The notes under the pieces are model-generated. The model saw nothing but the letters and a program-made list of their open reading frames with translations. It had not been told where the DNA came from and searched no databases. This document shows, piece by piece, positions 6,161 through 50,761 of a stretch of DNA of 64,000 bases. Location of the stretch: positions 64,792 to 128,791 of the forward strand of contig JBAZMQ010000001.1 in assembly GCA_041649675.1 (NCBI GenBank). The letters are read 5' to 3'. The translations under genes and the position numbers were made by a program. Each line of letters begins with the position of its first letter. Position 1 is the first letter of the stretch. Origin of the DNA: Patescibacteria group bacterium. GTDB lineage: Bacteria > Patescibacteriota > Patescibacteriia > Buchananbacterales > UBA6539.

Positions 6161-6224
6161 CTTGTAGCTTTTAGCTTGTAGGGCTCTGCCTAAAAGCTAT
6201 AAGCTAACAGCTAACAGCTATTAT
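6161..6224. repeat. AGCT-rich palindromic intercistronic element (copy 1), hrcA-grpE spacer
   Basis: tagcttgtAGCTTTTAGcttgtagggctctgccTAAAAGCTataagctaacagctaacagctatt; shares a ~35-nt right half with the 9620-9698 element. Confidence 0.5.
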
Positions 6225-7360: not shown

Positions 7361-9247
7361 ATGCCAAAAATTTTAGGAATTGATTTAGGAACCACAAATT
7401 CCTGTATGGCCATTATTGAGGGTGGTGAGCCCAAGGTGTTGGAAAACGCCGAGGGAGCGAGAACCACGCCATCAGTGGTGGCAATTAATAAATCCGGCGA
7501 AAGATTGGTTGGCCAAATTGCCAAGCGCCAAGCCGTAACTAACCCGGAAAACACTTTGTATTCAATCAAGCGGTTAATTGGCCGCAGATGGGAAGAAGAG
7601 GAAGTCCAAAGAGATTTGAAATTGATGCCATTTAAAATTGTTAAAGCGGGCGATGGTGTTAAGGTTGTGTTAAATGGCAAAGAATCTACGCCTCAGGAAA
7701 TTTCGGCTATGGTTTTGCAAAAGTTGAAAGCAGACGCAGAAAGTCGTTTGGGTGAAAAAATCACTGAAGCGATAATTACTGTGCCGGCCTATTTTAACGA
7801 TGCTCAGCGCCGGGCAACCAAAGATGCCGGGGAAATTGCCGGTTTGAAAGTTAAACAGATTATCAATGAACCAACCGCCGCGGCTTTAGCCTATGGGTTT
7901 GAAAAGAAGAAAGGCCAAAAGATTGCGGTTTACGATTTGGGCGGCGGGACGTTTGATATTTCCATTTTGGAAATTTCTCAAGATACCGTTGAAGTTAAAT
8001 CAACCAACGGGGATACTCATTTGGGCGGCGATGATTTTGATCAAGTTTTGATTGAATGGATTATTGCTGAATTTAAAAAAGATCAAGGCATTGATTTAGC
8101 TAAAGACAATTTAGCTTTGCAACGGATTAAAGAATCAGCCGAAAAAGCCAAAATTGAACTTTCCACCGCTCAAGAAACGGAAATCAATCAGCCGTTTATT
8201 ACCACTGATGCCGGTGGGCCAAAACATTTGGTTTTGAAATTAACTCGTTCTAAATTGGAAGAGTTAGTTGGCGAATTGGTTGAAAAAACCTTAGAGCCAT
8301 GCCGTAAGGCAATTGCTGACGCTAAGCTGGACGTGAAGGATATTGAAGAAGTAGTGATGGTTGGCGGAATGACTCGTATGCCTTTGGTTTTAAAGACCGT
8401 AGAAAAATATTTCGGCAAAAAACCAAATATTTCGGTTAATCCCGATGAAGTTGTCGCTTTGGGCGCAGCGGTTCAAGCTGGCGTTTTGCAAGGTGATGTT
8501 AAAGATGTGTTATTGCTTGATGTTACGCCGTTAACTTTAGGCATTGAAACCATGGGCGCGGTGGCTACCCCTTTAATTGAAAGAAATACCACCATTCCAA
8601 CTTCTAAATCACAAGTCTTTTCAACCGCTTCCGATAGCCAGCCCTCAGTTGAGATTCATATTTTGCAAGGTGAACGGCCAATGGCTCATGATAATAAAAC
8701 TTTGGGTCGGTTTATGCTAGACGGTATTCCGCCTGCTCCCAGAGGTGTGCCGCAAATTGAAGTGACGTTTGATATTGATGCTAATGGTATTTTGAATGTC
8801 TCGGCCAAAGATCGCGGAACCGGTAAAGAACAAAAAATTACCATTACCGCTTCGTCCGGACTTTCCAAAGACGAGATAGAAAAAATGAAAAAGGAAGCCG
8901 AAATTCATGCCAGTGATGATCAAAAAAAGAAAGAATTGATTGAAGCAAGAAATATGGCTGATACTTTGATTTATTCAAGTGAAAAAGGTGTTCGCGATGC
9001 CGGTGATAAGATTACTGATGATATTAAAAAGGATATTGAATCTAAGGTTGAAGAATTAAAGAAAATCAAGGATAGCGAAGATTTAGAAAGTATTAAACGC
9101 CGGACTCAGGAATTGAATGATGCGGCTCAAAAAATCGGTGAAGCAATCTATAAAGCTCAGCAAGCAGCCCAACCAGGCCAGCCAACGGGCAGCGAAGCTA
9201 AGCCGGAAGAAGGCGAAGTAGTTGACGATAAAGGTGACAAAAAATAA
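7361..9247 (+). CDS. dnaK: Molecular chaperone DnaK (Hsp70)
   Basis: 628 aa with canonical Hsp70 motifs ([27 protein letters not shown]). Confidence 0.97.
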
Positions 9248-9254
9248 CTATAAT

Positions 9255-9325
9255 TGAATCAGGAATTATGAATAAGGAATCAGGATCGCAAAGTTCCTGA
9301 TTCCTATTTCCTGATTCATAATTCA
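9255..9325. repeat. GAATCAGGA-repeat hairpin cluster after dnaK (partial terminator/attenuator)
   Basis: GGAATCAGGA-tcgcaaagt-TCCTGATTCC perfect 10-bp stem nested in an outer gaattatgaat/attcataattc repeat. Followed by TATTT only, which allows read-through. Confidence 0.45.
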
Positions 9326-9331
9326 AAATTT

Positions 9332-9619
9332 ATGGATAAGCAATTACCGGAAAATCAAATTCAAATTCGTGATAGCTTTGCCGGTGGCGAATATGCCAAC
9401 GCCATGTATGTCAGTCACACCAAAGAAGAGTTTTTATTAACTTTTCTAAATATTGTGCAACCATCCGGTCGGGTAGTGGGAAAAATTATTGCCAGCCCCG
9501 GCCACTTGAAAAGAATTATTCGAGCGTTGGATGAAAGCTTGAAAAAATACGAAACAACGTTTGGCAAAGTTCAGGAAGCTGAAGCGCCAAAAAGTGAAAT
9601 TGGATTTAAAGCAGAATAA
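9332..9619 (+). CDS. Small conserved protein (DUF3467-like) inserted between dnaK and dnaJ
   Basis: 95 aa; family assignment from memory. Confidence 0.4.
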   Translation: MDKQLPENQIQIRDSFAGGEYANAMYVSHTKEEFLLTFLNIVQPSGRVVGKIIASPGHLKRIIRALDESLKKYETTFGKVQEAEAPKSEIGFKAE

Positions 9620-9698
9620 ATAAGCTTACAGCTGTTAGCTTATAGCTTTTAGTTAAAATCTTTCTAAAAGCTAACAGTTATAAGCTACAAGCTATTCT
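9620..9698. repeat. AGCT-rich palindromic intercistronic element (copy 2), before dnaJ
   Basis: taagcttacagctgttagcttatagcttttag...ctaaaagctaacagttataagctacaagctattct-ATG; related to 6161-6224. Confidence 0.5.
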
Positions 9699-10805
9699 AT
9701 GGCAAAAGACTACTACAAAATTCTTGGAGTACCCAAAAGTGCCTCAGCCGATGAAATTCGGAAGGCTTATTATAAATTGGCCCACCAGCATCATCCGCAC
9801 AAAGGCGGCGATGAGGCTAAAATGAAAGAAATCAATGAAGCTAACGCGGTTTTAGGTAATGCCGAAAAAAGAGCTCAGTATGATAAATATGGTCAGACCT
9901 TTGAGCAAGCCAAGTCTCAGGGCGGGGCAGGGTTTGGTGGCTTTGGTGATTTTTCCGATTTTGCTTCCGCTTTTGGCCAAAATCAAGGTCAGGGTGGAAG
10001 TTTTAATTTTGACTTTGGTGATATGGGTGATATTTTTGGTGATTTATTTGGAATGGGCGGCAGGCGATCAAATCGGTCAGGCGGCAGAAACGCTGGCGCT
10101 GATATTCAGGTTGAATTAACGATTGAATTTTTGCAGGCAGTTTTTGGTACCGAGACCAATATAAATTTAAATAAAGACGTTGTTTGCCAAAAATGCAGTG
10201 GCAGTGGCGCTGAACCCGGAACCAAAACTGTAACTTGCAAAACCTGTAGTGGGACCGGCCAAATTATTCGTAACGTTGGTTTTGGTATTGGCTTTCCCAG
10301 TGCTTGTACGGAATGCTTAGGCAGCGGTAAAAAGGCGGAAAAAGAATGCAGTCAATGTCGCGGTAAAGGTACAACCAAGGAAACCGAAAATATTTTAGTT
10401 AAAATTCCAGCCGGTATTGATGACGGCCAATCAATTCGGTTAAGCGGTAAGGGTCAGGCTGGCCAAAAAGGTGCTAGCGCTGGAGATTTATATTTGAGAA
10501 TTAAAGTCATCCCTGACTCAAGGTTTAAACGGAAAGGTTTTGATATAAAAACTAAAGCTGAGATATCTTTTGTCAAAGCGGCTTTGGGCGGTAAAGTTGA
10601 AATTGACACTTTAGATGGCAAAGTTGATTTAAAAATTCCCGAAGGGACGCAAAGCGGCAAAGTTTTTCAGCTTAAAGGCAGGGGAGTGCCCCATTTACAA
10701 GCCAGAGGCCGAGGTGATCAATTAGTTGAAGTAATTGTTAAAACGCCGACCAAATTAAACCGGCATCAGCGTGATATTTTGAAAGAGTTGGATAATGAAT
10801 TATAA
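9699..10805 (+). CDS. dnaJ: Molecular chaperone DnaJ (Hsp40, type I)
   Basis: J-domain with HPD (AHQHHPHKG...), a G/F-rich region and four CxxCxGxG zinc-finger repeats. Confidence 0.95.
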   Translation: MAKDYYKILGVPKSASADEIRKAYYKLAHQHHPHKGGDEAKMKEINEANAVLGNAEKRAQYDKYGQTFEQAKSQGGAGFGGFGDFSDFASAFGQNQGQGGSFNFDFGDMGDIFGDLFGMGGRRSNRSGGRNAGADIQVELTIEFLQAVFGTETNINLNKDVVCQKCSGSGAEPGTKTVTCKTCSGTGQIIRNVGFGIGFPSACTECLGSGKKAEKECSQCRGKGTTKETENILVKIPAGIDDGQSIRLSGKGQAGQKGASAGDLYLRIKVIPDSRFKRKGFDIKTKAEISFVKAALGGKVEIDTLDGKVDLKIPEGTQSGKVFQLKGRGVPHLQARGRGDQLVEVIVKTPTKLNRHQRDILKELDNEL

Positions 10806-11526: not shown

Positions 11527-12096
11527 ATGAGTACAAACCAATTTGGTTTAGTTGATTTGGAGTCAGTTAATCCAAAGATAAAAATTGACATTCGTTACGC
11601 TAGCCAAGATAATTTCACAAAGAAAAAACTCTATTCTAGCGCCAGATGTTTTTTACAAAAATCAACGGCTCAAAAATTAAGTGATATCCAAAACAAGCTA
11701 GAAAAGCAAGGATTAGGTTTAAAAATTTGGGATGGCTATCGGCCGCTTTCAGTTCAAAAAGAATTATGGAAGATTATGCCTGACGAGCGTTATATTGCTA
11801 ATCCCCAAACTGGTTCGGATCACAATCGAGGGATTGCCGTTGATTTAACCTTGGTTGATTTGCAGGGCAAGGATTTACTGCTGCCAACGGAATTTGATAA
11901 TTTCAGTCCCAAGGCTCACCGAAATTGTTTTGATTTAACCGAAGAACAGATTAAGAATCGAAAAATTTTGGAAGATATTATGGTCAAAAGCGGTTTTATT
12001 CCTTTTCCGACTGAATGGTGGCATTTTGCCGATAGCGAAGGTAAGGATTTACCAGTTTTGGATATTGATTTTGTGGCCCTATCGTCTAGCGGCTAG
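11527..12096 (+). CDS. D-alanyl-D-alanine dipeptidase-like peptidase M15 (VanX/DdpX family)
   Basis: IDIRYASQDNF, DGYRP...LW, SDHNRGIAVDL and EWWHF motifs. Start taken at the internal Met (ORF track 11500). Confidence 0.7.
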   Translation: MSTNQFGLVDLESVNPKIKIDIRYASQDNFTKKKLYSSARCFLQKSTAQKLSDIQNKLEKQGLGLKIWDGYRPLSVQKELWKIMPDERYIANPQTGSDHNRGIAVDLTLVDLQGKDLLLPTEFDNFSPKAHRNCFDLTEEQIKNRKILEDIMVKSGFIPFPTEWWHFADSEGKDLPVLDIDFVALSSSG

Positions 12097-12149
12097 GACA
12101 TCAGGTTCTCATCCTGAAAACCGGGGTCCGATTCCCCGTGGGGCTACCA
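12075..12149 (+). tRNA. tRNA, Glu-like (anticodon CUC by manual fold), with encoded CCA
   Basis: Manual cloverleaf: acceptor GGCCCTA/TGGGGCT, D-arm TCGTCTAGCGGCTAGGACA (Glu-type), anticodon stem TCAGG/CCTGA with loop TTCTCAT, T-arm CGGGG-TCCGATT-CCCCG, then A + CCA. Two oddities: C at position 55, and the first 22 nt overlap the 3' end of the upstream CDS. Confidence 0.6.
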
Positions 12150-12153
12150 AAGG

Positions 12154-12188
12154 GAACTACTTAGTGAAAAAGTAGTTCTTTTTGTTTT
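12154..12188 (+). terminator. Intrinsic terminator after the tRNA
   Basis: GAACTACTT-agtgaaa-AAGTAGTTC followed by TTTTTGTTTT. Confidence 0.7.
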
Positions 12189-12311
12189 AGTTAAGAGAAG
12201 AAATCGAGTTTGCCACTTTAAAATCGTGGTGGTAAACTTAAAATTGATTAAAAACATTAAATTTGCAATAATTTAAACGATTTGAGTTGAGTTTGTCGCC
12301 AATGCCGGTCG

Positions 12312-13157
12312 ATGAACTATAAATATACTATGTCGGATTTAACTGCTATCGAAAAAAGAAAGCTTGAAAAACATTTTCAAATGGGAGGTGGGGTAGTTTG
12401 CAACTTTTCTAATAGAACTTTTGCAAATCAAGTTTTAGATTCTATTGGTTTAGATGTATATGTTGATAAATATAAAATTTTTGGTGAATCAAAGGCTAAT
12501 CGATTGAGGGCTCTCTGGAAGATCGAGAATAACTATACGATATCAAAACTTCTTATTGGCATTTTAGAATATTGGAAAGCAGAGCGGACTTTACTAAGTG
12601 TTGATGAAAGTATGTGGAGCGAAGCCTTTAACCCTGAGCTACATGAAGAATGTTTAAAAATAGCTGAGCGTTTAAAAAATAATACTGCGATGGGAGATTT
12701 AGATGCCTTAGAACAATATAATCTTGATGATAATTATGAATTATTAACTGATTCGATAAAGACAAGCATACTTAAAGATAAACCCGATCAAGCGATTGAT
12801 AGAATGCATACGTTTACAATAAAACGTATGCGCTTACTTTGTGACAAACACAATATTAAATATAGTAAGGATACTTTTCTCCATACTTTATTTGGTAACT
12901 ACGTGAAATTTTTGGAGGAAAATAAATTGATTCAATCAGAAATGTCATTAAGAATTTTGAAATCGTCAATTTCTATCTTGGACGCCTTTAACTCCGTAAG
13001 GAATAGCCATAGTTTAGCGCACGATAATGAAATTTTAAATAGAAATGAAAGTATACTAATTTTTAGTAATATTTTTAGTCTTATTAAATTTATTGATGCT
13101 ATAGAAGAGAGCTCTTCCAGCAACACAACTAATGAGATTGAGAATATCCCTTTTTAA
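12312..13157 (+). CDS. Abi-like protein with C-terminal HEPN-type motif (putative abortive-infection/toxin RNase)
   Basis: 281 aa, very AT-rich. C-terminal R-x6-H (VRNSHSLAHDN) resembles the HEPN Rx4-6H motif. Sits in the island next to the recombinase; its 3' end overlaps the recombinase 3' end by 29 nt. Confidence 0.45.
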   Translation: MNYKYTMSDLTAIEKRKLEKHFQMGGGVVCNFSNRTFANQVLDSIGLDVYVDKYKIFGESKANRLRALWKIENNYTISKLLIGILEYWKAERTLLSVDESMWSEAFNPELHEECLKIAERLKNNTAMGDLDALEQYNLDDNYELLTDSIKTSILKDKPDQAIDRMHTFTIKRMRLLCDKHNIKYSKDTFLHTLFGNYVKFLEENKLIQSEMSLRILKSSISILDAFNSVRNSHSLAHDNEILNRNESILIFSNIFSLIKFIDAIEESSSSNTTNEIENIPF

Positions 13158-14553
13158 TAAATTGTAGTTCGTCATCATAATCAACTCCATCAGGCGTAAC
13201 CCTGATGTTTTTTAATAGACTATCTATCAGCCTGCGCTTTTGTTCTCCGTTGGCTTGCTGGTAAGCGTGAACGGGATCACCCAGCAGACTGGCTAATTCT
13301 AATTTATGATTTAACCCACCGTCATCATTTGGATTAATTCTTTGCAACTCACTTTCAAGCTCAGCTATATTCTTGGCGTACTCGGCCCGCTTCAGGTCAA
13401 ACATATCTCTGGGAATCTCGCCATCTATATTTTTATCAATCAGCTTGCTTAGCCTTAATCTGGCTTGCCCGATTTGAAGAACAATTGATTCCTTCTTTTG
13501 AATCATGGCCAAGGCTAATGATTTTTTGGTTTTATGAGCTTGCTCAATCATCTCATCGACTTGGTCGGGCGTGAACCGTATCTTTGTTAATTCGTCTAAT
13601 ATCCAAGTCTCAACCAACTCTTCCTTTATAGGCTTCATGCTGCACAATTTATTACGGCAGTAGTAATAGTGGTATTTATGCTTTGATGTCGTTGACCGCA
13701 AGCGCTTTCCACAGAGACCGCAACTCAGAATATGGACAAATTTGTATTCGTTGACTTGCAACTTAGGTATTGCATGCCGTTTTTTGACGGCCTGTACTTT
13801 GCTATAAAGTTCTTCCGAGACTAATGGCTGATGTTGCCCTTGAAAGATCTGCCCCTTTACCGTGACAAAGCCCAGGTAATATTTATTATTCAAAAGCGTG
13901 CAGAGCTTTGTATATCTCATTTTATTGCCGAAACTACTCCGTAAGCCTTTGTTAAACATAATGGTCTCTAAATCAAGCAGTGAATATTCGCCAGTGGCAT
14001 ACAGTTTGAAACATTCCGAAATAAGCGGACCCATAATCGGATCCACTACACGTATGCTCTTGCCGCCCTTTACATAACCTGTCGGCACATTGCCGAATGG
14101 CGAATAACCCTGACTCAGCCGTTTGTACATGCCCTCTTTTACCCTGGTACTCAAAACACGAGTGTCATTTACCGCCATGACCGCTTTAACGTCAGCCATC
14201 AGCCTATCGCCGTTACTTTTGAGCTGAATGTTTTCCCGGCTTAGATGGATTTCCAAACCCTCGTCCATCAAATTACTGATTATCGCCCAGTCACGAAAGT
14301 TCCGACTGCTTCGGTCGACATCGTGAAAAATAATACCGGCAATATCATTCCGTGATTCAAGGTCGCCGATCATCTCGTAGAATTTTTTGCGTTTGGCAAT
14401 TTTTGATGCGCTCTGAACTTCCCGAAATTCTTTGGCAATGACAAGACTGTGACTATTCGCGTATGCGACAATAGCTTCACGTTGGGCATCCAAGGATACA
14501 CCGTCCCTTTCCTGCCCCTTTGAACTGACTCGATAATAGCTGAAATATTTCAT
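13129..14553 (-). CDS. Large serine recombinase (resolvase/invertase N-domain plus recombinase and zinc-ribbon/coiled-coil C-terminal domains)
   Basis: N-terminus YYRVSSKGQ..DGVSLDAQ with catalytic Ser and conserved R/D; 474-aa length; Cys cluster (CGLCGKRL...YYCRNKLC) typical of LSR zinc ribbon. Confidence 0.85.
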   Translation of the reverse strand: MKYFSYYRVSSKGQERDGVSLDAQREAIVAYANSHSLVIAKEFREVQSASKIAKRKKFYEMIGDLESRNDIAGIIFHDVDRSSRNFRDWAIISNLMDEGLEIHLSRENIQLKSNGDRLMADVKAVMAVNDTRVLSTRVKEGMYKRLSQGYSPFGNVPTGYVKGGKSIRVVDPIMGPLISECFKLYATGEYSLLDLETIMFNKGLRSSFGNKMRYTKLCTLLNNKYYLGFVTVKGQIFQGQHQPLVSEELYSKVQAVKKRHAIPKLQVNEYKFVHILSCGLCGKRLRSTTSKHKYHYYYCRNKLCSMKPIKEELVETWILDELTKIRFTPDQVDEMIEQAHKTKKSLALAMIQKKESIVLQIGQARLRLSKLIDKNIDGEIPRDMFDLKRAEYAKNIAELESELQRINPNDDGGLNHKLELASLLGDPVHAYQQANGEQKRRLIDSLLKNIRVTPDGVDYDDELQFIKKGYSQSH

Positions 14554-14634
14554 CGTCGTTGTAATTTGATTATATGAGACAAGCGTTTGATTTCGAATGA
14601 TTTCTGACTATTTCCTGTATGTTGACCGATATTC

Positions 14635-14685
14635 TCTGCATCTCAGTTTCCCGTAACCTTTAGGTTACGGAAACTGAGATGCAGA
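14635..14685. repeat. 51-bp near-perfect palindrome (24-nt arms around TTTA) immediately upstream of the serine recombinase gene
   Basis: TCTGCATCTCAGTTTCCCGTAACC-ttta-GGTTACGGAAACTGAGATGCAGA; single 1-nt bulge. Confidence 0.8.
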
Positions 14686-14697
14686 ATTAGATTACGG

Positions 14698-15639
14698 CTA
14701 CGTTAGCCGATAAAAATGTTTTCCCTTGACCCCGACTTCCTTCTCAAGTTTTTTATCCTTAACCATCCGATCAAGCAATTCATCTGTAGCCGACTCGCCA
14801 ATTAAACTTTTTACAGATTCAACTAAATCCTGTCTTGATTTGATCCCGTTATCTTTTATCTCTTCGATAATTTTTGTCCAAGCCATGTCATTCTTGTCTT
14901 CCTCCTGCTTTGTCGTTCCTGCATAACTAAATTTTACCGATTTGTCAGATTTATCAATTTTTAACTGGAACGTATCCATCTCTTCGGCGATTCTTAATTT
15001 GCCCTGAGTAACTTCGATAATGGTTTTTTTATTACGTGCGGCAACCATTAAATGACAATCCACAGCAGCCAAAATATCCGACGACCCTCTTAGGTTAATA
15101 TTTGATTGACCACGTTCGTTACCCTTTCTTAAATGGTGGGTAATTATTACAGTAACTCCTAAGTTTGTAATCTTGTTAAACAGCGAAAAAACATCCGACA
15201 CCTGTCCCGCAATATTCTCATCTTTGCCGTGGATTCTAACAAAGCTGTCAATACATACGAGCCTAATTTTTTTAGCTTTTATGAACCTTAGTAAGTCTTC
15301 TTCGTCTTCAAGTTTATCAATCCGAAACCCATGTTTACTGGAGATGTGAATCACTCCCTTATTTGTCATGTTGACTAACTTGAACCGTTCCTTCATAAAA
15401 CTTAAATTATTTTCCTCATCGATTATCAGCACCTTCCCTTTTAAACAGTCAAATTGGTCAAATAGTTTTTCACCAAGTGAAACAGATTTTGCAATTTCGA
15501 TCAGTATCCAGGTTTTAAAGTTTCCAGGATGGCCAGACAGAATTGTGATTCCTTGGGCAGGAATTAAATCCTTAATTAACCATTTCGGTGCTTTTAGATT
15601 TTTGCGCAATAATTTTGCGACTGCTATAGTATGTAACAT
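14698..15639 (-). CDS. RecA-like/AAA_25-type ATPase (RepA-like replication/primase-helicase loader of mobile elements)
   Basis: Walker A-like GHPGNFKT, Walker B VLIIDEEN, and a C-terminal winged-helix-like tail; family assignment from memory. Confidence 0.55.
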   Translation of the reverse strand: MLHTIAVAKLLRKNLKAPKWLIKDLIPAQGITILSGHPGNFKTWILIEIAKSVSLGEKLFDQFDCLKGKVLIIDEENNLSFMKERFKLVNMTNKGVIHISSKHGFRIDKLEDEEDLLRFIKAKKIRLVCIDSFVRIHGKDENIAGQVSDVFSLFNKITNLGVTVIITHHLRKGNERGQSNINLRGSSDILAAVDCHLMVAARNKKTIIEVTQGKLRIAEEMDTFQLKIDKSDKSVKFSYAGTTKQEEDKNDMAWTKIIEEIKDNGIKSRQDLVESVKSLIGESATDELLDRMVKDKKLEKEVGVKGKHFYRLT

Positions 15640-15981
15640 ACAAGTTTAGATTATTGAGATTAATTAGAACGACTAAAACTAAAACTAGCCAGGCCCATCT
15701 CGGCAATTAAAAAACATCTCGTCATAAATTTCTAAAATAACGTCTATATATTCATATGATATTTTTTGCTGTTGCTTGTATTGCATAAAAAATAAACAAA
15801 AAAAGCCCGCAACAGCATATGAACTAAGTGTTCACACACTATTGCGGGCTCCTTACCGCTTCTGACCATCACTCGCGATGGATTTTCCTACAAAAATGTA
15901 GTACCGTCTTTAATTTTTAATATTCAATTTAGTCACCTTACACCTTATTTTAAAAAAAGTCAAGACTAAGCCTGTGTATAA

Positions 15982-16476
15982 TTATTTTAATTTTAATAAA
16001 AAATCTACAATAAATTTTACAAAAGGCTCACTTTTTTCCTGGGCAAATTTTTTGGCTTTACGCTCATCTTCAATAAAAAGGGAATCTCGTTCTATTGGAG
16101 GTTGTCCAGTTTTTTTATCAATAATTAATTGATTGAATCGATCAATCTCATCGGCATAATCATAAATACCGTCTACGGCTATACTGTTATATGTTCCACA
16201 TTCACAGATGGCAGCCATCTCTTCATATTTAACAACTAATGTGGTTTTATTCCCAACTTTCATTTTTGCTCGACTACCGTGTATATCTGCAACAATCATT
16301 TTTTTGCAATTAGAACAAACCCAAGTTTCAATTCCAGCCTCAGGGTTAATCTGTATTCTACCGTTTGTTATAATTTCATTTGTAGGCCTTGCCTTATTCG
16401 CCTCTTCAAGTGATCCAAAAATTTTGATTTTTTCTTGGTTGATAGAATCTAGTAATTTTTTATTCATGTAAGTCAT
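15982..16476 (-). CDS. Hypothetical protein with Cys4 zinc-ribbon-like motif (CSNC...CECG)
   Basis: 164 aa; no family recognised. Confidence 0.4.
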   Translation of the reverse strand: MTYMNKKLLDSINQEKIKIFGSLEEANKARPTNEIITNGRIQINPEAGIETWVCSNCKKMIVADIHGSRAKMKVGNKTTLVVKYEEMAAICECGTYNSIAVDGIYDYADEIDRFNQLIIDKKTGQPPIERDSLFIEDERKAKKFAQEKSEPFVKFIVDFLLKLK

Positions 16477-16848
16477 ACAGTTTAAATTAAATCTACCTTT
16501 ATTTTACACAAAAAAATACCGTTTTGTCCAAACGGAGTCAAATTCAGTCGTATTTTACAAGTTTACCCCTTGGCGATAGGGTAATTCTTTTTTTACTATA
16601 TGCGGCTCTAAATCGTCCGTTTTAACATCCTAGCGCCGTGATTAAACTCGAACTGGCTGTCAATAACGCTAGCCTAAAGCGATCTGAAATTATGAGTTTA
16701 AATACATATAGAGCTTGCCCCGAAATAGCATAGAGAGAATTTAAAGAATATTTTGATCAATTTTTGAGGCTGCAACTGCTATGCTTCGAATGATTTGATT
16801 TAAAATAATCGACAATTTCAGACGTAAAGTATTTGAAGGCAAGTAGTT

Positions 16849-17061
16849 TTACTTTGGCTGAATCATTTCCCAAAGATACTGTTTCTCTAGCTCCAGCGAT
16901 TTTATTTTTGCGTCATGCAGCATTTCCTGATTTTTGATTTCAACATCAATAGCTTCTAGTCGTGCCATTACCTCCAAAAATTTATCCGGATTAACCCCTT
17001 TCTTCGCTCGCTTCTTTCTAAGATGTTTAACGTCCGCTCCTTGAACTTTTTTATTTGTCAT
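16849..17061 (-). CDS. Small basic coiled-coil protein (70 aa), unknown
   Basis: Lys/Arg-rich N-terminus and heptad-like C-terminus; could be a DNA-binding regulator. Confidence 0.3.
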   Translation of the reverse strand: MTNKKVQGADVKHLRKKRAKKGVNPDKFLEVMARLEAIDVEIKNQEMLHDAKIKSLELEKQYLWEMIQPK

Positions 17062-17072
17062 ATTGTGTTCGA

Positions 17073-17591
17073 TTATTTATATTTTCTTATACAGTCTACT
17101 TTACAGACACTTCTTTGGGTACCAGTTAAATTATTATCACTGCATTCATTTATGCAATCTTCGTATTTTGATTGAACCGATATATATTTTTGTCTTGATA
17201 TATATTTAATCGAGTAAACAATGCCGATCAATAATGTTACTACGACTATAGGCACAAATATACCAATAATAAATTGTTTATTAATCGAAGTAGTTTTTAT
17301 ATTACCTAACTGCGGTCTACTTTGTTTAGTCGCTTTCCATATCGATTTAATTATAAAATATAATCCTAAAATATTCAGGGCAAAGGCGATAAATGATGCA
17401 CCACCCCCGACCAGATATCCAACGTAATTACAAACAATAATTAACCCAAAACCAATAGCTAATGATAACAAAAGATTGTCGGTTGTTTTTTCGACAAATT
17501 TTGGTTCTTTCATAGAGTTAGTTTTAAAAAAATAATTAATATTGTTGTAATCAAAAAACCCACCGCTAGGGCGGTAGCTTGCGCTACCCAT
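17073..17591 (-). CDS. Membrane protein (3 TM) with Cys-rich C-terminal tail (CINECSDN...CKVDCIRKYK)
   Basis: Hydrophobic profile; the likely start is the internal Met (MKEPKF). Confidence 0.4.
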   Translation of the reverse strand: MGSASYRPSGGFFDYNNINYFFKTNSMKEPKFVEKTTDNLLLSLAIGFGLIIVCNYVGYLVGGGASFIAFALNILGLYFIIKSIWKATKQSRPQLGNIKTTSINKQFIIGIFVPIVVVTLLIGIVYSIKYISRQKYISVQSKYEDCINECSDNNLTGTQRSVCKVDCIRKYK

Positions 17592-17609
17592 ACTCCTTTC
17601 GGAATATGA

Positions 17610-17657
17610 CCTGGTTAAGGGATACCCTAAACGATGGGATCTATGTCCTTAACCAGG
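17610..17657. repeat. Inverted repeat CCTGGTTAAGGGA...TCCTTAACCAGG (13-bp arms, ~23-bp spacer)
   Basis: Located between the divergent membrane gene and gajA. Confidence 0.6.
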
Positions 17658-17810
17658 ATTTTCAGCCATGCCCCACAAATGCAAGGTTTAGGCTGGTTTG
17701 ATTGTACCCATTAATATTAATCTTTTTGCTAAATTTTGTAAATATTCGCTTGATTTTTGGCGTAAAAGGAGCTAATGTAAATTTAAAGCTATAAAAAATA
17801 ACCAATAAAT

Positions 17811-19724
17811 ATGAAGATTAAAAGACTAAAAATTGAAAATTTCCGATCAATTAAATCCTTGGACATTGAATTGGATGACACTTCGGTTTTTATCGGCGCT
17901 AATAATGCTGGTAAGTCTTCAATACTGGAAGCAGTACGAATTGCTTTATCTCGAAGATGGGGTCAACAAGGGACTGGGTTTACTGAGGATGATATTCATT
18001 TAGTTAACGATAAGATAGATCCTCGGAATGCGCCACCAGTAAAAATTCGTTTTGAGTTTGAAGAAGGATCATCGGGAGAATGGCCTACGGACATGGTGGC
18101 TGAACTTGAACAAATAATGACTCTTACGCCCACAAATTTAAATAAAGTTACGTTTACGATATCTTATATATGGAATCCCGAAAAGGAGTTGTTTGAAACA
18201 ACCTGGCAATTCCTGAATTCATCGGGAGATCCATTCCCGTCGGCTAGTAGATCAGTTAACTTCTCTGGATTTTTTAATTATATAATTTTTCTTTGGGTAG
18301 GTGCTTTACGAGATGCAGATGATGAGTTTACATCACATTCACGTAATTGGGGTGGTCTTTTGAAATCCATTAAAATTCCAAAAGAAATCGAAGAGGAGAT
18401 AAAAAATGATCTCGATGTTCTTGATGAAAAATTACTTCGGGCTGATCCCAAATTTTTGCAGATATCAGAAACCATTGGAAAAGCAACTGAAATTACTATT
18501 GAAAATGGTCCTGGTTCTGCAAAAATTCGTATGCTGCCAATAAATGTTTGGGATATGATTACACGAGCTGGTATAATTCTTAAAAATGAAGACTTGCGCC
18601 CCTGGCTTCCGCTTAATCATCATGGTCAAGGCCTTCAAAGTTTATCAATTATTTTTCTGTGCCATGCTGCAGCGGCTCAAAAACTTGTTGAGAATAATTT
18701 TGGTGCTGAACCCATATACGCAATTGAAGAGCCGGAAGTTCATCTACATCCTCAGGCTGCTCGTACTTTATGGTCCAAGATGACTGAAATTGCTGGGCAA
18801 AAATTAATAACAACTCATTCGCCTTATTTTGTTCAGAACGTGCCACTCCATAGCCTTAGAGTTGTTCGTTTGCAGGATGATTCTACTTCAATTTCATTTT
18901 TACCAAAAAAGATTGAGTCTGATATACCGTGGACAGAAGACGTTGAAAATTTTGTTAAAGGAGCAGGCAGAAATTATTTTAAATTGAATAAGCTAACCAA
19001 CTCAATTGATGCCATTCAAAGTTTTGATGAAAATATTATGAATGATTTAGTACATTGCTGGAAAGTAGATAATGACGACCTAATATCGAATAAAATAAAA
19101 GAATTACGACGTAAGTCTAGCGTACTTGTCTCAGAAGAAGAAGAAAGAAATTTATCTTTTCAAGGAAGACGTATTCGTGGAGAAATATTTTTTGCACGTT
19201 TTTGGGTTTTGGCGGAAGGGGTATCTGAATATTTGTTACTCAAAGCCATTGGTGATGCTTATGAATTTGATTTAGATCAATATGGTGTAGCAATTATTGA
19301 TTTTCAGAATAATGGAAGGCCAGATATCTATGCAGCTTTAGCAGAGGCTTTTAAAATCCCGTGGTTTATGATTACTGACGGCGATGGTGCTGGAGAAGCC
19401 ATGAGAAAGCAACTATCAAAAAGAGGATTTGATGCTAAATATCTTCAAGAACATTCTGATTTTTTGCAATCGCCAAATACTCTTGAGGCTCAGCTACTTG
19501 CTGATGGAAATGGACCTCTACTTAGAAAAATTATTGCAGACACTGGTGATACTAGTGCATTGACATGCTCAGTTGATGATTTTAAAAATAAACTTAGCAA
19601 TAAAAAAACTCCCTGTATGAGTCGTCTCGCTTCATTAGTCTCAAGAGATATAACTCTCGCAAAGAAAATGCCAGAAAAATTTATTTCAATAATTGAAAGA
19701 ATTAAATCTGACCATCAATTATGA
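17811..19724 (+). CDS. gajA: Gabija GajA-like OLD-family protein: N-terminal ABC-type ATPase plus C-terminal Toprim nuclease
   Basis: N-terminus KIENFRSIKSLDIEL..VFIGANNAGKSSILEAV (OLD/AAA_15-like P-loop). C-terminus Toprim_OLD-like (VLAEGVSEYLLLKAIG...IIDFQNNG...ITDGDGAG with E and DxD). The TGA stop overlaps the ATG of the downstream helicase (ATGA). Confidence 0.75.
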   Translation: MKIKRLKIENFRSIKSLDIELDDTSVFIGANNAGKSSILEAVRIALSRRWGQQGTGFTEDDIHLVNDKIDPRNAPPVKIRFEFEEGSSGEWPTDMVAELEQIMTLTPTNLNKVTFTISYIWNPEKELFETTWQFLNSSGDPFPSASRSVNFSGFFNYIIFLWVGALRDADDEFTSHSRNWGGLLKSIKIPKEIEEEIKNDLDVLDEKLLRADPKFLQISETIGKATEITIENGPGSAKIRMLPINVWDMITRAGIILKNEDLRPWLPLNHHGQGLQSLSIIFLCHAAAAQKLVENNFGAEPIYAIEEPEVHLHPQAARTLWSKMTEIAGQKLITTHSPYFVQNVPLHSLRVVRLQDDSTSISFLPKKIESDIPWTEDVENFVKGAGRNYFKLNKLTNSIDAIQSFDENIMNDLVHCWKVDNDDLISNKIKELRRKSSVLVSEEEERNLSFQGRRIRGEIFFARFWVLAEGVSEYLLLKAIGDAYEFDLDQYGVAIIDFQNNGRPDIYAALAEAFKIPWFMITDGDGAGEAMRKQLSKRGFDAKYLQEHSDFLQSPNTLEAQLLADGNGPLLRKIIADTGDTSALTCSVDDFKNKLSNKKTPCMSRLASLVSRDITLAKKMPEKFISIIERIKSDHQL

Positions 19725-21616
19725 CTTCGAATTTTGATGAATCGTTTATTGAACTTAGTCCAATTCAACGTGATGCCGTTAACTGGGGTGATGGCGCTCT
19801 TTTAGTTCTTGCTGGCCCCGGCGCAGGGAAAACAAGAGTTCTTACTACCCGCATTGCCAAATTAATTTCTGATAATCCTGAACGAAAATTTAAGATCTTA
19901 GCATTAACATTTACCACCAAAGCTGCATCCGAAATGCATGATCGCGTAGAGACGCTAATACCTGGAGTTGTTGATAATAGAACATTTATCGGAACATTCC
20001 ATGCTTATTGCACTCAAATTTTACGGCAGCATGGTTCTCATATCAACATTCATCCTGATTTTAGCATATTTTCCCAAAGAGAAGATCAGGAAGCTCTTCT
20101 GCTTGATGCAATTAATTATTCAATAAAGCAAGGGAAAAAATTCTCAATTGATGACGTAAAATTGCTGGACACAATAAAAATTTTGAAATCTCGTTTAATT
20201 GTTCCTGAGAAAACATTACTAAATATTAACAACCCACATCTCAAGGAGGTATACGAACTATATGAGCAAGCATTGAAGAGTGAAAATGGAATAGATTTTG
20301 AAGGGCTCATCTTGGAAACTTGCAGATTACTCGCAAAGATGCCCGCAATTTCAGCCAGAATAAGACAATCATATCCCTATTGGCTGATTGATGAATTTCA
20401 GGACACCTCACCATCTCAGTATTGGCTCTTACATTATCTTGCCGGCGATCAATTTAAAAATATTTTCGTCGTTGCCGATGACGATCAGATAATTTATCAT
20501 TGGGCAGGTGCTAGTTATAGGCAGATAGAAAAATTTAGGGAAGAATATAAACCAGAGCTTATCCAACTTGTCGAGAATCATCGATGTCCACCTGAAATTG
20601 TTGATATGGCAAATCAATTAGTTGCTTATAATACCCAAAGAACACCTGACAAAAAACCCACAACTCCTGGAAGAGATATTCCTTTAGACGCCGTGCAAGT
20701 GAAAATTTTCGGCAATGATAGGGATGAATATGCGTCAATCTCCAATGCTATTTATTTACAAGGGGAGGGATCCTGGGGAAAGACAATAATTTTAGGCAGG
20801 ACAAAATCATTACTTGAATCTATGATAGAAAGTCTCAAATTAAAAGGTGTAAGGGCGGTGATATCACAAAGGAGAGACAATTTTATCTCACCGCAATTTA
20901 TTTGGTTGCAAGCAATGATTGATCAAATAATCCATCCTACCAATAAACGTATTTTTAATATTTTTGCATATGCGGCCAATAGGGTATGTGGCCTAGAATT
21001 CGACCCAATACTATTAATTGCCGAAGCAGAATCGGTGAGCAAAAATTACATTGAACATTGGTCAGAGATAGTCATGTCGTCCGATAATGATGTGGCAAAA
21101 AAATTGGGATCTTTAATTCAACAGCTCATCCAATCTAGGCAAAGTTGGAAAAAAATAGTCAAGGATGCTATAAGTACCTTACTTGAAACTGGTCGAGTTA
21201 CACAGGATGCCGTCAGTGACGCGGATGATGATTATAGAGCTTGGACCGCATGTTTAAGAGAAATTCAATCTGAAATTGGTCAAGACTTAGATCTTTCAGA
21301 TGTTGTTCAGGGAATAGCTCTCCGTTCAAAAGAACCTCCAATTGTACCTAATACGGTGACGCTCATGACAATACATGCAGCCAAAGGGCTTGAATTTGAA
21401 ATTGTGTATATCATCGGACTCGCAGAAGGAGAAATGCCATCCTGGCAAAGTTGTAAAAAGGGAGATACCTCACCTGAAATGGAGGAGGAGCGTAGAAATT
21501 GTTTTGTTGCAATTACCCGGACACAAGAAAAACTTGTGTTATCTTCTTCTGGGGTTTATAGGGGATTTGAAAAAAAATCATCCCGTTTTTTAAAAGAGAT
21601 GAAATTAATCTCATAG
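19721..21616 (+). CDS. gajB: Gabija GajB-like UvrD/PcrA/Rep-family SF1 helicase
   Basis: Walker A AGPGAGKTRVLT, motif II DEFQDTSPSQY, and a C-terminal helicase domain (TIHAAKGLEF...). Translationally coupled to gajA. Confidence 0.75.
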   Translation: MTSNFDESFIELSPIQRDAVNWGDGALLVLAGPGAGKTRVLTTRIAKLISDNPERKFKILALTFTTKAASEMHDRVETLIPGVVDNRTFIGTFHAYCTQILRQHGSHINIHPDFSIFSQREDQEALLLDAINYSIKQGKKFSIDDVKLLDTIKILKSRLIVPEKTLLNINNPHLKEVYELYEQALKSENGIDFEGLILETCRLLAKMPAISARIRQSYPYWLIDEFQDTSPSQYWLLHYLAGDQFKNIFVVADDDQIIYHWAGASYRQIEKFREEYKPELIQLVENHRCPPEIVDMANQLVAYNTQRTPDKKPTTPGRDIPLDAVQVKIFGNDRDEYASISNAIYLQGEGSWGKTIILGRTKSLLESMIESLKLKGVRAVISQRRDNFISPQFIWLQAMIDQIIHPTNKRIFNIFAYAANRVCGLEFDPILLIAEAESVSKNYIEHWSEIVMSSDNDVAKKLGSLIQQLIQSRQSWKKIVKDAISTLLETGRVTQDAVSDADDDYRAWTACLREIQSEIGQDLDLSDVVQGIALRSKEPPIVPNTVTLMTIHAAKGLEFEIVYIIGLAEGEMPSWQSCKKGDTSPEMEEERRNCFVAITRTQEKLVLSSSGVYRGFEKKSSRFLKEMKLIS

Positions 21617-21686
21617 ATAATAATGATTTATTGTAAAAATTAAAATTTCGGCCAATTAACAAATGATTTATAAGGTTCAATTTATA

Positions 21687-21715
21687 AGTTTGCCACTCAT
21701 TACGACAAGCTCTAC
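21687..21715 (+). repeat. Direct repeat A (AGTTTGCCACTCATTACGACAAGCTCTAC)
   Basis: About 25/30 identical to 25466-25495. Confidence 0.6.
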
Positions 21716-21877
21716 TTTAGTGATTGTGAGGTAGAGGCACGCTTTCTCCTTAGTTTACTCCAACCGAGGAGTAAACTGACCTACACATAAGAGTAGGAAT
21801 TTAAAGTATATTAGTATTTTTTTCTTAATTTACCAATCGCAATTTATAGGTCGCTTACCAGGCGATTTTTTAGTTTA

Positions 21878-21921
21878 ATAAAAAAATCCCTGCAGTCTTG
21901 TTTGGTACAAATCTGTAGGGA
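21878..21921 (-). terminator. Intrinsic terminator of the GH16 lipoprotein gene
   Basis: On the minus strand: TCCCTACAG...CTGCAGGGA followed by T7. Confidence 0.6.
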
Positions 21922-21941
21922 AAATATAATCAAAGGAACGG

Positions 21942-24218
21942 CTAGTTGACTGCCGGCGGTTTAATGAAGAACTGCTGGCCGATCGGGTCACGGCTATTTC
22001 CTAGGAAATAGGTTTTGACAAACGACAGTTCTTTGGTGTCACTGTCATAGCGCAAGACTTCTATTCCCTGGTGATCGAGGCTGCCATTATTGTAGTTGTA
22101 GGCGCTGCGAGCATAGACCAGACCGTCAGGTCCGACCTTGACGTAGTAGGCGCCGTACTGGGCATAACGGCTGACAACCGCATTGTCGGCAAAGCTATAG
22201 ACGGCAATTTCACCTTTACCATAGTAGGGATTGCCACCAGCTCCAATAAAGGCAAGGCTGCTGTCTGGCAAGAAATCAACTGCACCGGCAAAATCACCTA
22301 GGCCGGAGTAACCGAACTGGTGTTGGAAATTATGCAGGTCATAGACGCTGACCGAACCCCGTGCAGAGGAGTAGCTGGTTTGGAAGAAATAGTTGCCTAA
22401 CGGGTCAGTCAGGGCGAGGTGATGTCCATAGCTAACCGGCATAACCGAGGCATTCAGCGTATCCGTGGATAGATCCACCAGATTCCAGCTACCGTTTTCC
22501 ACTTGAGATAGTGTGCCATTATTCAAGCGGACGGTGTTGTAGCCGCCATCCACGTTAATAGGGAAGTTGCTATCCACAAGTGTTCGGGTCGTAATGTCGT
22601 ACTTGTTGTTTTCTAAGTAGCAGAACCGACTATCGGCCGAAAACAACGGCAGGTAATACGAGGTAGTCTCGTCTGATGCATAATACAAATCATTAGTGCT
22701 GATGGATGCGGGGAAAGGCAGAGGATCGCCGTTTAGCGTGTGATCCGAAGTCTGATAGACATTCCCTTTGACGTCAACAACATATTGCCCGTCAGGTGTT
22801 CCGGCTAGCATTATCACTTCGGGCAAAGCACCCCAGATCACGCTCTTAGTTAGATTAACCACCAGTGTGGCCGACAGGTCCTCGGTGGGCATATAAAGCA
22901 GCTCATCTTGGGTTGTGGTTAAACTTTGATCACAGGTGATTTTGTAAGTGATTGAATTACCCACCTTGTTGCCGGAATCATCTTGCCCTTGCAAAACGAA
23001 CTCATTGGTTCCGGGTTGTAGGGTGGCTAAGTAGAGAATCTTGCCGTAGAGGTCGGTTTTATCAGTAGGGATGACTTGGTCGCCAATTTGTACTTGGGTA
23101 ACCCGCCAGTCAAATACGGTTGTCAAGGGATAGCTGGTCAGATTGGTCGTCACCTTGATTTCGTCGGGCCAATCGGGTGGAGTTGGCTGAAAAGCAAACC
23201 CCGAAATCAGAACTGCCTGGGTCGCACCATTGCTTGGCGGCTTACCTTCAAACTGCCACAAGTTCAAGTGGACTCTTTCCTCGCCGGGCGTTGGCACAAG
23301 CGGACCTTCATATGACCATTTTTTAATCAAGGTGTCGGGATCTGTGGGCGGACTATCAAGATATTTACCTTGATAAGTGCGCATTTCCACTTTGCCCGGA
23401 CTCCAGATCAGGTAAGTGGTGATGTCGGCGTTTATGTCCTGGTGGAACCGATTACAGTTATCCATACCTACGAGACATTGGCCACAGGGTGGAACGGCGT
23501 ATTGGCAGTTGTTTTCGTCTGCGGCGTTGCCAAACTGACTGAATTCAAAGAAATCAATTTCCCGGTTGTTTGGGTCGGTGTCAGTATCATCCCACAGGAA
23601 AATACCGAAAACCAAATAAGAATCAGACGCCAGGGCGGGGTAGTGTTTCTTAAGTTGAACAATATACACGCCGTAGCCAAACGATTGGTCAAGAATTACT
23701 TCACTTGACTGCCATTTGCCGTCCTGTTCTTTGACTGCCAAATGAAGAACGCCGCTATCATCAACCCAGGCATTCTTTGGACTATACGAATTTGGTCCAG
23801 GACCAACCGGCGAAGGGTAACACTTTTTGGTCCACGGCAATCCGGAAAAATCAAACGCTAGGTTTTCGCTTTCGCATTCGTCTTCGCCCTCGCCTTCACC
23901 GCTTGGGATAACCATCAGCGTGGCTACGTTAGAATAGACACAGCCGGCTGAATTTTTGGCAAATGCCCGGTATTGTCCCGCATCATTTTCAGTGACAACG
24001 GGAAGTGATAGAATTTCTCCACCGGCATCGGCAACTATGATGTCATCTTTCAACCAGCCGATTGTTTCGGCGTTTTCAACTCCGACGCTAAACTGAACAT
24101 TCGCGCCGACGCTGACCGTCTGTGATACTGGCTGCTCGATGATTTTTGGCAGTTGAGGACAACCGGCCAAAAGTATCATTGCCGCTACAATCACAATCAC
24201 ATTCCATTTGCTTTTCAT
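21942..24218 (-). CDS. Secreted lipoprotein with glycoside hydrolase family 16 (beta-glucanase/laminarinase-like) domain plus Ig-like and beta-propeller-like regions
   Basis: Lipobox LLAGC; GH16 catalytic motif E-I-D-F-F-E (REIDFFEFSQ); (GE)n linker PSGEGEGEDECESE. Gene is markedly GC-rich relative to its neighbours. Confidence 0.55.
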   Translation of the reverse strand: MKSKWNVIVIVAAMILLAGCPQLPKIIEQPVSQTVSVGANVQFSVGVENAETIGWLKDDIIVADAGGEILSLPVVTENDAGQYRAFAKNSAGCVYSNVATLMVIPSGEGEGEDECESENLAFDFSGLPWTKKCYPSPVGPGPNSYSPKNAWVDDSGVLHLAVKEQDGKWQSSEVILDQSFGYGVYIVQLKKHYPALASDSYLVFGIFLWDDTDTDPNNREIDFFEFSQFGNAADENNCQYAVPPCGQCLVGMDNCNRFHQDINADITTYLIWSPGKVEMRTYQGKYLDSPPTDPDTLIKKWSYEGPLVPTPGEERVHLNLWQFEGKPPSNGATQAVLISGFAFQPTPPDWPDEIKVTTNLTSYPLTTVFDWRVTQVQIGDQVIPTDKTDLYGKILYLATLQPGTNEFVLQGQDDSGNKVGNSITYKITCDQSLTTTQDELLYMPTEDLSATLVVNLTKSVIWGALPEVIMLAGTPDGQYVVDVKGNVYQTSDHTLNGDPLPFPASISTNDLYYASDETTSYYLPLFSADSRFCYLENNKYDITTRTLVDSNFPINVDGGYNTVRLNNGTLSQVENGSWNLVDLSTDTLNASVMPVSYGHHLALTDPLGNYFFQTSYSSARGSVSVYDLHNFQHQFGYSGLGDFAGAVDFLPDSSLAFIGAGGNPYYGKGEIAVYSFADNAVVSRYAQYGAYYVKVGPDGLVYARSAYNYNNGSLDHQGIEVLRYDSDTKELSFVKTYFLGNSRDPIGQQFFIKPPAVN

Positions 24219-25465: not shown

Positions 25466-25495
25466 AGTTTGCCACTCATTGCCACAAAGTTCTAC
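25466..25495 (+). repeat. Direct repeat B (AGTTTGCCACTCATTGCCACAAAGTTCTAC)
   Basis: Matches repeat A at 21687-21715. Confidence 0.6.
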
Positions 25496-50643: not shown

Positions 50644-50761
50644 ACTTTTAGATAGTAAAATGACGTCACTCTAACCGGTGACGTCATTTTTTGTTTTTAA
50701 CATTGAATTTTTTATAGAAAAATGCTATAATTAAGTTATAACTATTAAAAATGTTTTTGTT

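Follow-up and report, generated by a model that had tools for sequence, protein, structure and literature searches.

The origins of Staphylococcus aureus pathogenicity islands (SaPIs) lie directly 3' of the rep gene and consist of opposed iterons around an AT-rich region, and the iterons are recognised by a winged-helix domain in the C-terminal domain of the helicase (PMC9371898). Staphylococcal cassette chromosome mec (SCCmec) carries the large serine recombinases CcrAB together with a helicase-primase operon (PMC7581432). The locus described here lies in a 64,000-nucleotide (nt) stretch, called the window below, of a Patescibacteria group bacterium (contig JBAZMQ010000001.1). In this stretch a long palindrome is found between a gene for an ATPase of the AAA_25 family and a gene for a large serine recombinase (LSR). 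A sequence-only reading of the window had put the palindrome forward as a candidate attachment or recombination site of the recombinase or, alternatively, as an origin used by the ATPase. Comparison with related loci indicates that the palindrome goes with the AAA_25 gene and not with the recombinase. We lean, at slightly better than an even chance, towards the palindrome being the replication origin, that is the binding and loading site, of the self-loading RepA-like helicase predicted from the upstream gene.

The locus resembles the SaPI Rep-ori system in that an integrated island carries a helicase with what is probably, from its model, a C-terminal domain of winged-helix type. In both systems the cis site lies directly 3' of the helicase open reading frame (ORF), and the site varies with the type of helicase. 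In relatives of the window locus, repeats are opposed around an AT-rich centre; they are degenerate in the window itself. SaPI Reps have AAA+-type cores, whereas the helicase core here is of the RecA type and RepA/DnaB-like. The site also differs, being a single compact palindrome of 50 bp, built from 2+2 units of 8 bp, as compared to the 6–12 penta- or hexanucleotide iterons of SaPIs. The integrase here is an LSR at a tRNA gene, the host belongs to the Patescibacteria, and the system is known from sequence alone. RepA of the IncQ plasmid RSF1010 is the best structural and sequence match to the helicase core, and palindromic sites for single-strand initiation are part of the IncQ oriV. RSF1010 RepA lacks a C-terminal domain for DNA binding; a separate initiator, RepC, recruits it at iterons, together with the primase RepB'. 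Unlike in RSF1010, Pfam and PHROGs searches of the present element recognised no homologue of RepC or RepB'. SCCmec and the present locus are both chromosomal islands that join integration by an LSR to a replicative helicase module of their own. The helicase family and the operon differ, and SCCmec targets the rlmH gene and not a tRNA. By analogy, the palindrome and the helicase are most likely a variant of the rep-ori cassette.

A conserved palindrome behind the AAA_25 gene

The palindrome spans 51 bp and reads TCTGCATCTCAGTTTCC-C-GTAACCT TT AGGTTAC-GGAAACTGAGATGCAGA. Its outer arms of 17 nt each are 100% complementary. The inner arms are 7 nt each, and an unpaired C is present at position 14652 in the left arm. 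The arms thus measure 24 and 25 nt around a TT centre, or a TTTA loop once folded, and the centre (GTAACCTTTAGGTTAC) is moderately AT-rich. On a gapped palindrome score devised for this analysis, the site reached 22, compared to 17 for the runner-up in the window and 11–12.5 for six block shuffles. This is far above chance expectation, and the near-perfect symmetry described in the sequence-only reading is borne out by both the complementarity of the arms and the score. Folded as single-stranded DNA, the two strands give −24.3 and −24.5 kcal/mol (z about −13); folded as RNA, the 206-nt region around the palindrome gives −55 kcal/mol (z −5.8). Exact matches to the arms within the window are limited to the palindrome's own two arms, and one further match, with 3 mismatches, lies at 61879. 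A dispersed repeat resembling repetitive extragenic palindromes or miniature inverted-repeat transposable elements was rejected because multiple copies are absent from the window. An Rfam search over 12000–18000 gave only a sub-threshold, chance microRNA-like match at the palindrome (RF04125; 27.5 bits, with the cutoff at 90).

The palindrome starts 12 nt 3' of the TAG stop codon of the AAA_25 gene (14698–14700). Its other edge is 82 nt from the LSR start codon (ATG, 14553), with a promoter-like site in between. It had been placed directly upstream of the recombinase start; it is indeed upstream, but not directly so, and it lies nearer to the AAA_25 stop codon.

Loci were fetched around homologues of the LSR (41–63% identity) and around homologues of the AAA_25 protein, and a gapped palindrome scan was performed on each. 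A palindrome of 46–57 bp was found in ten related loci (L002, L003, L011, L013, L014, L016, L021, which is the same as L017, L033, L042, and L043); the upstream gene is cut off in L021. In the loci that show the upstream gene, the start of the palindrome falls in the interval from 24 nt before to 17 nt after the AAA_25 stop codon; the next gene lies 48 to 253 nt away. Approximately 190 kb of fetched loci contain about 10 distinct palindromes scoring at least 18, and seven of them are at this position.

The arms of these palindromes are diverged homologues, with the right-arm consensus AAAAARCTAAWAASCAGA. In an alignment of 8 sequences, 14 of the 24 pairs change on both sides and five stem pairs are invariant, while the flanks are unconserved. 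Pairing cells amount to 80.6% in this alignment as compared to 39–59% in slid controls, and none of 500 shuffles reaches the observed values. The covariation and the invariant pairs, within unconserved flanks, indicate that the symmetry and part of the sequence are under selection. Stem mismatches comprise 3 G-T and 5 A-C, with no strand bias. Unbiased mismatches and equal folding of the two strands are more readily reconciled with a site in duplex or cruciform DNA than with an RNA of the sense strand. Relative to the genes, the orientation of the centre and bulge is flipped between the window and L002, which is consistent with a site acting at the DNA level yet uninformative where the site is symmetric. 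In the relatives each arm contains two tandem 8-bp units, YTTTTTAR (2+2), which are identical at 6–8 of 8 positions in five of seven relatives and at 4–6 of 8 in L014 and L021. The centres of the relatives' palindromes are very AT-rich (for example ATATCTAAAGATAT). In viral contigs, 5 of 8 distant genes for AAA_25 primase-helicases have palindromes or iterons 12–70 nt downstream. The sequence AAGTTTGCCAC is also present 22 nt after the palindrome in the distant relative L033 (6026–6035), between the palindrome and the LSR gene.

A conserved stem just behind a stop codon could also act in RNA. The palindrome might form a hairpin at the 3' end of the AAA_25 mRNA, either as a terminator lacking a U-tract or as a stabiliser that would also insulate the LSR gene from read-through. 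Its start 12 nt after the stop codon, the shared direction of both genes, the very stable fold of the 206-nt region, the promoter-like site that the LSR has downstream, and the maintenance of the stem by covariation would all suit such a hairpin. However, a run of T or U is absent on both strands and a terminator scan was negative at the site, which upholds the earlier remark that none follows on the minus strand. Canonical terminators, with a hairpin and a T-run, are used in this genome at 12148–12184 (after tRNA-Glu), 15849–15805, and 50657–50690. The 24-bp stem far exceeds what those terminators need, as the sequence-only reading had also held. The stems of the relatives are nearly all A/T, with 2–3 G-C pairs of 25 in L013 and a DNA folding energy of just −8.8 kcal/mol in L003. 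Certain stem positions are invariant, and a sense-strand G-U bias is absent among the mismatches. In addition, a second class of loci, described below, has direct GTTAAC repeats and no hairpin at the equivalent place, and termination is therefore not a conserved requirement there. Taken together, an RNA hairpin appears unlikely. An intrinsic terminator in the strict sense was rejected, since the palindrome lacks the combination of a G+C-rich stem and a U tract.

Upstream gene classes and the recombinase module

The genes directly upstream of the recombinase module belong to two unrelated classes. Class A encodes the AAA_25 protein (the window, L002, L003, L011, L013, L014, L016, L033, L035, and L039). 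Class B encodes a P-loop protein of 330–480 amino acids with the Walker A motif GTGKT and the Walker B motif DEAD (L005, L007, L009, L015, L020, and L022). Pfam, PHROGs, and PDB profile searches with the class-B protein gave nothing significant beyond its Walker A/B P-loop. No palindrome is present in class B. These loci instead have 2–3 tandem GTTAAC repeats with a period of approximately 9–10 bp, situated 10–40 nt after the class-B stop codon (Table 1). The repeats are probably the corresponding cis site in a second replication module that is still uncharacterised.

In both classes a promoter-like block, TTAGAY-N17-(GTCTYA)TATAAT, precedes the recombinase genes and lies 3' of either type of site. 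Because this block is common to both, the module boundary is placed between the site and the promoter. A neighbour-joining tree of the LSRs interleaves class A and class B loci; in the case of L015, a class B locus without a palindrome, the LSR nests among those of class A loci L003, L011, L013, and L016. The LSR tree is interleaved while the type of site matches the upstream gene, and the palindrome therefore belongs with the AAA_25 gene and not with the LSR. On these comparisons, the LSR is a separate module with its own predicted promoter. The gene that follows the palindrome is the LSR gene in some loci. Elsewhere it encodes a protein of 247–266 amino acids with Resolvase and Recombinase domains and no zinc ribbon, directly 5' of the full-length LSR, a two-recombinase arrangement seen in many members of the family.

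Large serine integrases were the other candidate partners of the palindrome. The general properties of their phage attachment sites (attP) have been described (PMC12286644). The window palindrome is like attP sites of the phiC31/Bxb1 type in its length of approximately 50 bp, its imperfect inverted half-sites, its central asymmetric dinucleotide, and its place beside an integrase gene. Unlike them, it is intact in integrated elements, is on the wrong side of the integrase gene, and shows no covariation with the integrase; its symmetry is also much closer to perfect than that of attP sites found in nature. Integration would cut an attP in two, yet the palindrome is intact in eleven independent contexts (the window and the ten related loci), which argues that it is not an att site. 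The attachment-site reading first proposed was therefore not borne out: the palindrome stays whole inside integrated elements, the 3' end and not the 5' end of the LSR gene is at the tRNA border, and the type of site tracks the upstream gene. As judged from the sequences, the palindrome is not the attachment site of the LSR, and the att site is predicted at the LSR 3' end, next to the tRNA.

The tRNA border was seen in the majority of loci. Of the 14 loci scanned with Rfam, 11 have a convergent tRNA gene directly at the LSR 3' end or overlapping it (L003, L005, L007, L011, L013, L015, L016, L020, L022, L035, and L039), and LSR ORFs often end in peptides of the ...GNRT... type, which are the antisense translation of the tRNA T-arm. 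tRNA genes are unusual targets for LSRs. The tRNA is His-like in L005 and Arg-like in L022 (both read by eye), and it is tRNA-Glu in the window. Between tRNA-Glu and position 12217, the window contains a remnant LSR tail (KWQT...W* on the minus strand) that is homologous, at the DNA level, to the ends of the LSR genes in L005 and L022, both next to other tRNAs. The position of the LSR 3' end in the relatives and the remnant tail in the window together place the recombinase-side border at the tRNA. The palindrome is approximately 1.5 kb from this border in typical members and 2.4 kb from it in the window. The C-terminus of the window LSR departs from the family consensus and is without FEWQTPF. 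The Abi_C gene, located between the LSR gene and the remnant tail, overlaps the LSR stop codon by 29 nt. This suggests that the Abi_C gene replaced the original LSR 3' end, a change that, as read from the sequence, may affect recombinase activity.

A search for half-sites had been put forward as a check of the attachment-site reading. The exact-arm pattern, TCTGCATCTCAGTTTCCN{0,1}GTAACCT, gave 0 matches in metagenome and viral contigs; an intact copy is absent from them too, so this result is uninformative. In the only other sample with this exact element (L001), both arms occur together. No LSR relatives were found in viral contigs, and arm-like sequence near the tRNA junctions or the LSR end was at background level only.

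The LSR could still use the palindrome as a dimer site of some other kind, whether attP-like, pseudo-att, res-like, or an operator. The geometry is that of an attP, with two half-sites of approximately 24 bp around a non-palindromic TT and 51 bp in total, and the palindrome occupies the intergenic region upstream of the LSR gene. Tn3 and gamma-delta resolvases autoregulate from res sites upstream of tnpR. However, the intact state of the site in integrated elements and the location of the LSR 3' end at the tRNA border count against this reading as well. Related LSRs in L015, L005, L007, L009, and L022 have no such palindrome, the distance from the palindrome to the LSR promoter varies from approximately 25 to more than 200 nt, and five loci have a small recombinase gene in between. 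Near the tRNA junction, sequences resembling the arms do not exceed background, and the contigs that yielded no half-sites also hold no intact copy. We consider any such use of the palindrome by the LSR very improbable.

The AAA_25 protein and a candidate origin

The AAA_25 protein (313 amino acids) consists of a helicase core, residues 1 to approximately 245, and a C-terminal domain, residues 249–313. PHROGs places it in phage primase/helicase families, and its homologues, at least 149 in number, are often fused to Prim-Pol and PriCT_1. A profile built from seven family members matched the RSF1010 RepA helicase (1g8y) with E = 1.6e-6. The AlphaFold2 (AF2) model of the protein has a mean per-residue confidence (pLDDT) of 92 and a global confidence (pTM) of 0.83. 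Its top Foldseek matches were the RepA structures 1nlf, 1olo, and 1g8y (E of approximately 5e-13, TM on target 0.75–0.77), and further fold matches included DnaB, RadA, KaiC, and Twinkle. The protein models as an RSF1010 RepA-like hexameric helicase fold. In the case of the C-terminal domain, the model displays two helices and a beta hairpin (pLDDT approximately 95). Profile matches to winged-helix proteins are weak (2mh2, E = 0.008; 4ldz, E = 0.03), and a WHD_TBPIP match in the homologue P0048 is faint. According to the model, this domain is probably a winged-helix DNA-binding domain.

The anchoring of the palindrome to the stop codon and a layout matching that of SaPI origins are the basis for proposing the palindrome as the origin of the island. 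Of the two functions suggested at the outset, an origin for the RepA-like ATPase is the one favoured by the comparative evidence, from which we infer DNA binding by the helicase, melting, and replication at the palindrome. One helicase assembly would bind each arm, in opposite orientations, by means of the C-terminal winged-helix-like domain. The central AT-rich or cruciform-prone segment would then open, possibly aided by cruciform extrusion, and helicase rings would load bidirectionally after excision of the island. The LSR would act separately, at the far end of its own gene, at the tRNA gene. SV40 large T antigen and papillomavirus E1 load as two helicase assemblies, head-to-head, on an inverted-repeat site. 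The concept of head-to-head loading is alike; the proteins (superfamily 3) and hosts are unrelated, and the comparison is an analogy only.

The same association with AAA_25 and the same symmetric, conserved arms would be seen if the helicase C-terminal domain, or another protein of the element, bound the palindrome for regulation and not as an origin. Such binding might tie expression of the recombinase to the replication module, or function in partition or packaging, and a location between two modules suits a regulatory role. However, the palindrome overlaps no promoter, its spacing to the promoter is variable, and we know of no precedent for a replicative helicase acting as a regulator alone. 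The layout of rep followed by ori, on the other hand, has a direct precedent (PMC9371898). A purely regulatory site is, in our estimate, distinctly unlikely.

Several observations weigh against the palindrome as an origin. A recognisable primase was not found in the element by Pfam and PHROGs searches, no contig was circular, and terminal overlaps were absent in all fetched contigs. Secondary structure and weak profile matches are the grounds for calling the C-terminal domain a winged helix. Covariation cannot tell a symmetric DNA site from a hairpin RNA, and terminators also sit just 3' of stop codons. In the window, the 8-bp sub-repeats are degenerate (2–3 of 8) and the centre is only moderately AT-rich. 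Two AAA_25 loci, L035 and L039, have short hairpins only, after an extra small ORF, and neither a palindrome nor a hairpin was found in the Prim-Pol-fused relative L040. These three exceptions indicate that the palindrome typifies one clade of stand-alone AAA_25 helicases. A small share of the probability also falls to readings outside the four that were weighed.

Should the palindrome be an origin, the helicase, its C-terminal DNA-binding domain, and the 50-bp palindrome could together form a minimal self-loading replicon, by which a tRNA-integrated defence island with a serine recombinase would replicate on its own once excised. We offer this as a tentative proposal, to which we give somewhat less than an even chance. 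The LOOT RNA of the island (Table 1) would then be a so far unexplained regulatory component of the element family.

Layout and cargo of the island

The locus is a chromosomal island in a bacterium of the candidate phyla radiation (CPR), and its closest relative among reference genomes is a Candidatus Saccharibacteria metagenome-assembled genome. To the left of the LSR gene are dnaK, dnaJ, a D-Ala-D-Ala dipeptidase gene, tRNA-Glu, and the Abi_C gene. To the right of the AAA_25 gene are three small ORFs, the LOOT RNA, and a complete Gabija system. The coordinates are collected in Table 1. A megablast of 12000–22000 against phage and plasmid collections gave no match, and a limited check of the literature found no description of such elements.

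Table 1. Features of the island in the window, and of sites and genes in related loci (given as locus:coordinates).
Feature	Location	Strand	Evidence
Palindrome, proposed to be the origin or the cognate binding site for the helicase encoded upstream	14635–14685	.	Symmetry, homologues, arm covariation
AAA_25 gene, predicted RepA-like hexameric helicase core and C-terminal domain	14698–15639	-	Pfam AAA_25, E = 9e-26
LSR gene, 474 amino acids	13129–14553	-	Pfam Resolvase, Recombinase, Zn_ribbon_recom
LSR promoter-like site, TCGAAA-N16-TATAAT, with GTCTCA before the -10	14569–14596	-	-10 block conserved in both locus classes
Small hairpin CGGCTA-cgt-TAGCCG across the AAA_25 stop codon	14695–14709	-	Sequence
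Terminator-like long hairpin and T-run, upstream of the AAA_25 gene	15805–15849	-	Canonical form
ORF of the element, 164 amino acids, no family	15982–16476	-	ORF list, family searches
ORF of the element, 70 amino acids, no family	16849–17061	-	ORF list, family searches
ORF directly 3' of the LOOT RNA, 172 amino acids	17073–17591	-	ORF list
LOOT RNA (Rfam RF03000), head of the leftward gene set	17573–17694	-	93.6 bits
Gabija system (GajA 17811–19724, GajB 19721–21616)	17811–21616	+	PADLOC, 720 bits and 741 bits
Abi_C-domain gene between the LSR gene and the tRNA-side border	12312–13157	+	Pfam
Remnant LSR 3' tail (KWQTRFLLLTKTK...W*) directly beside the tRNA; LSR-side border of the element	12150–12217	-	Homology to LSR ends
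tRNA-Glu(CTC), integration-side neighbour	12075–12149	+	tRNA / Rfam scan
GTTAAC repeat sites of class B loci	L005:7150–7187, L007:1636–1657, L009:345–368, L015:3033–3056, L020:1280–1307, L022:3850–3868		
Small recombinase genes	L005:7261–8004, L011:3179–3922, L013:3180–3980, L016:3182–3925, L042:5325–6122, L043:5336–6079		

The terminator-like element upstream of the AAA_25 gene is a 20-pair hairpin followed by TTTTTTTGTT and is sited between the 164-amino-acid ORF and the AAA_25 gene. With a canonical terminator here, the helicase gene is expected to have a promoter of its own. The Gabija system is complete and is island cargo in a Patescibacteria genome. LOOT RNA recurs in three related elements with AAA_25 and LSR genes (L003:3306–3407, L033:2275–2398, and L039:4022–4145). 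In each instance it is located just 5' of the first ORF of the gene set and adjoins divergent cargo, and in the window and L003 the cargo beside it is an OLD/GajA-type ATPase. LOOT RNA was not found in the class B loci that were scanned. It appears to belong to this family of elements.

An 11-nt sequence, AGTTTGCCACT, occurs three times on the plus strand (12207–12217, 21687–21697, and 25466–25476), where approximately 0.03 occurrences would be expected for an 11-mer. Read on the minus strand, it specifies the C-terminal (E)WQT motif of the LSR. The second and third copies (21687 and 25466) have 15 nt in common (AATGAGTGGCAAACT, minus strand) as well as a similar flank. These copies were considered as att cores and rejected: the copy at 12207 belongs to the remnant LSR tail homologous to L005 and L022, and the related loci carry one copy. 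The copies at 21687 and 25466 could mark the far border of the island or older insertions. Exact-protein look-ups of the flanking dipeptidase and DnaJ, made for an empty site, matched nothing, probably owing to the choice of start codon.

A 758-amino-acid ORF (21942–24218, minus strand) lies between the second and third copies of AGTTTGCCACT. It has approximately 49% G+C, compared to approximately 37% around it, and gave weak immunoglobulin-domain matches only; it is possibly foreign. Three long imperfect palindromes (6157–6214, 9254–9326, and 9619–9696) flank dnaK (7361–9247) and dnaJ (9699–10805), and two of them have repeats of the TAGCTTRTAGCTTTTAG type in common. These may be operators, similar to the controlling inverted repeat of chaperone expression (CIRCE), or terminators.

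The comparison also bears on how such sites are read, as a long perfect palindrome that lies beside a serine recombinase is not necessarily an att site, and the neighbour with which it co-varies decides. The orphan LOOT RNA motif gains a genomic home, recurring in this element family. Gabija and Abi genes in these tiny genomes ride a modular island, in which cargo is combined with a recombinase module and with a replication module that has a cis site of its own. To our knowledge, no native replicon has been described for plasmid vectors in the Patescibacteria (CPR, including Saccharibacteria/TM7). If the palindrome is the origin of the upstream helicase, the pair would be the first native origin and initiator, with a matching tRNA-targeting serine integrase, to be defined for Saccharibacteria/Patescibacteria. 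The compact helicase-plus-origin cassette and the tRNA-targeting serine integrase would be candidate genetic tools for these bacteria.

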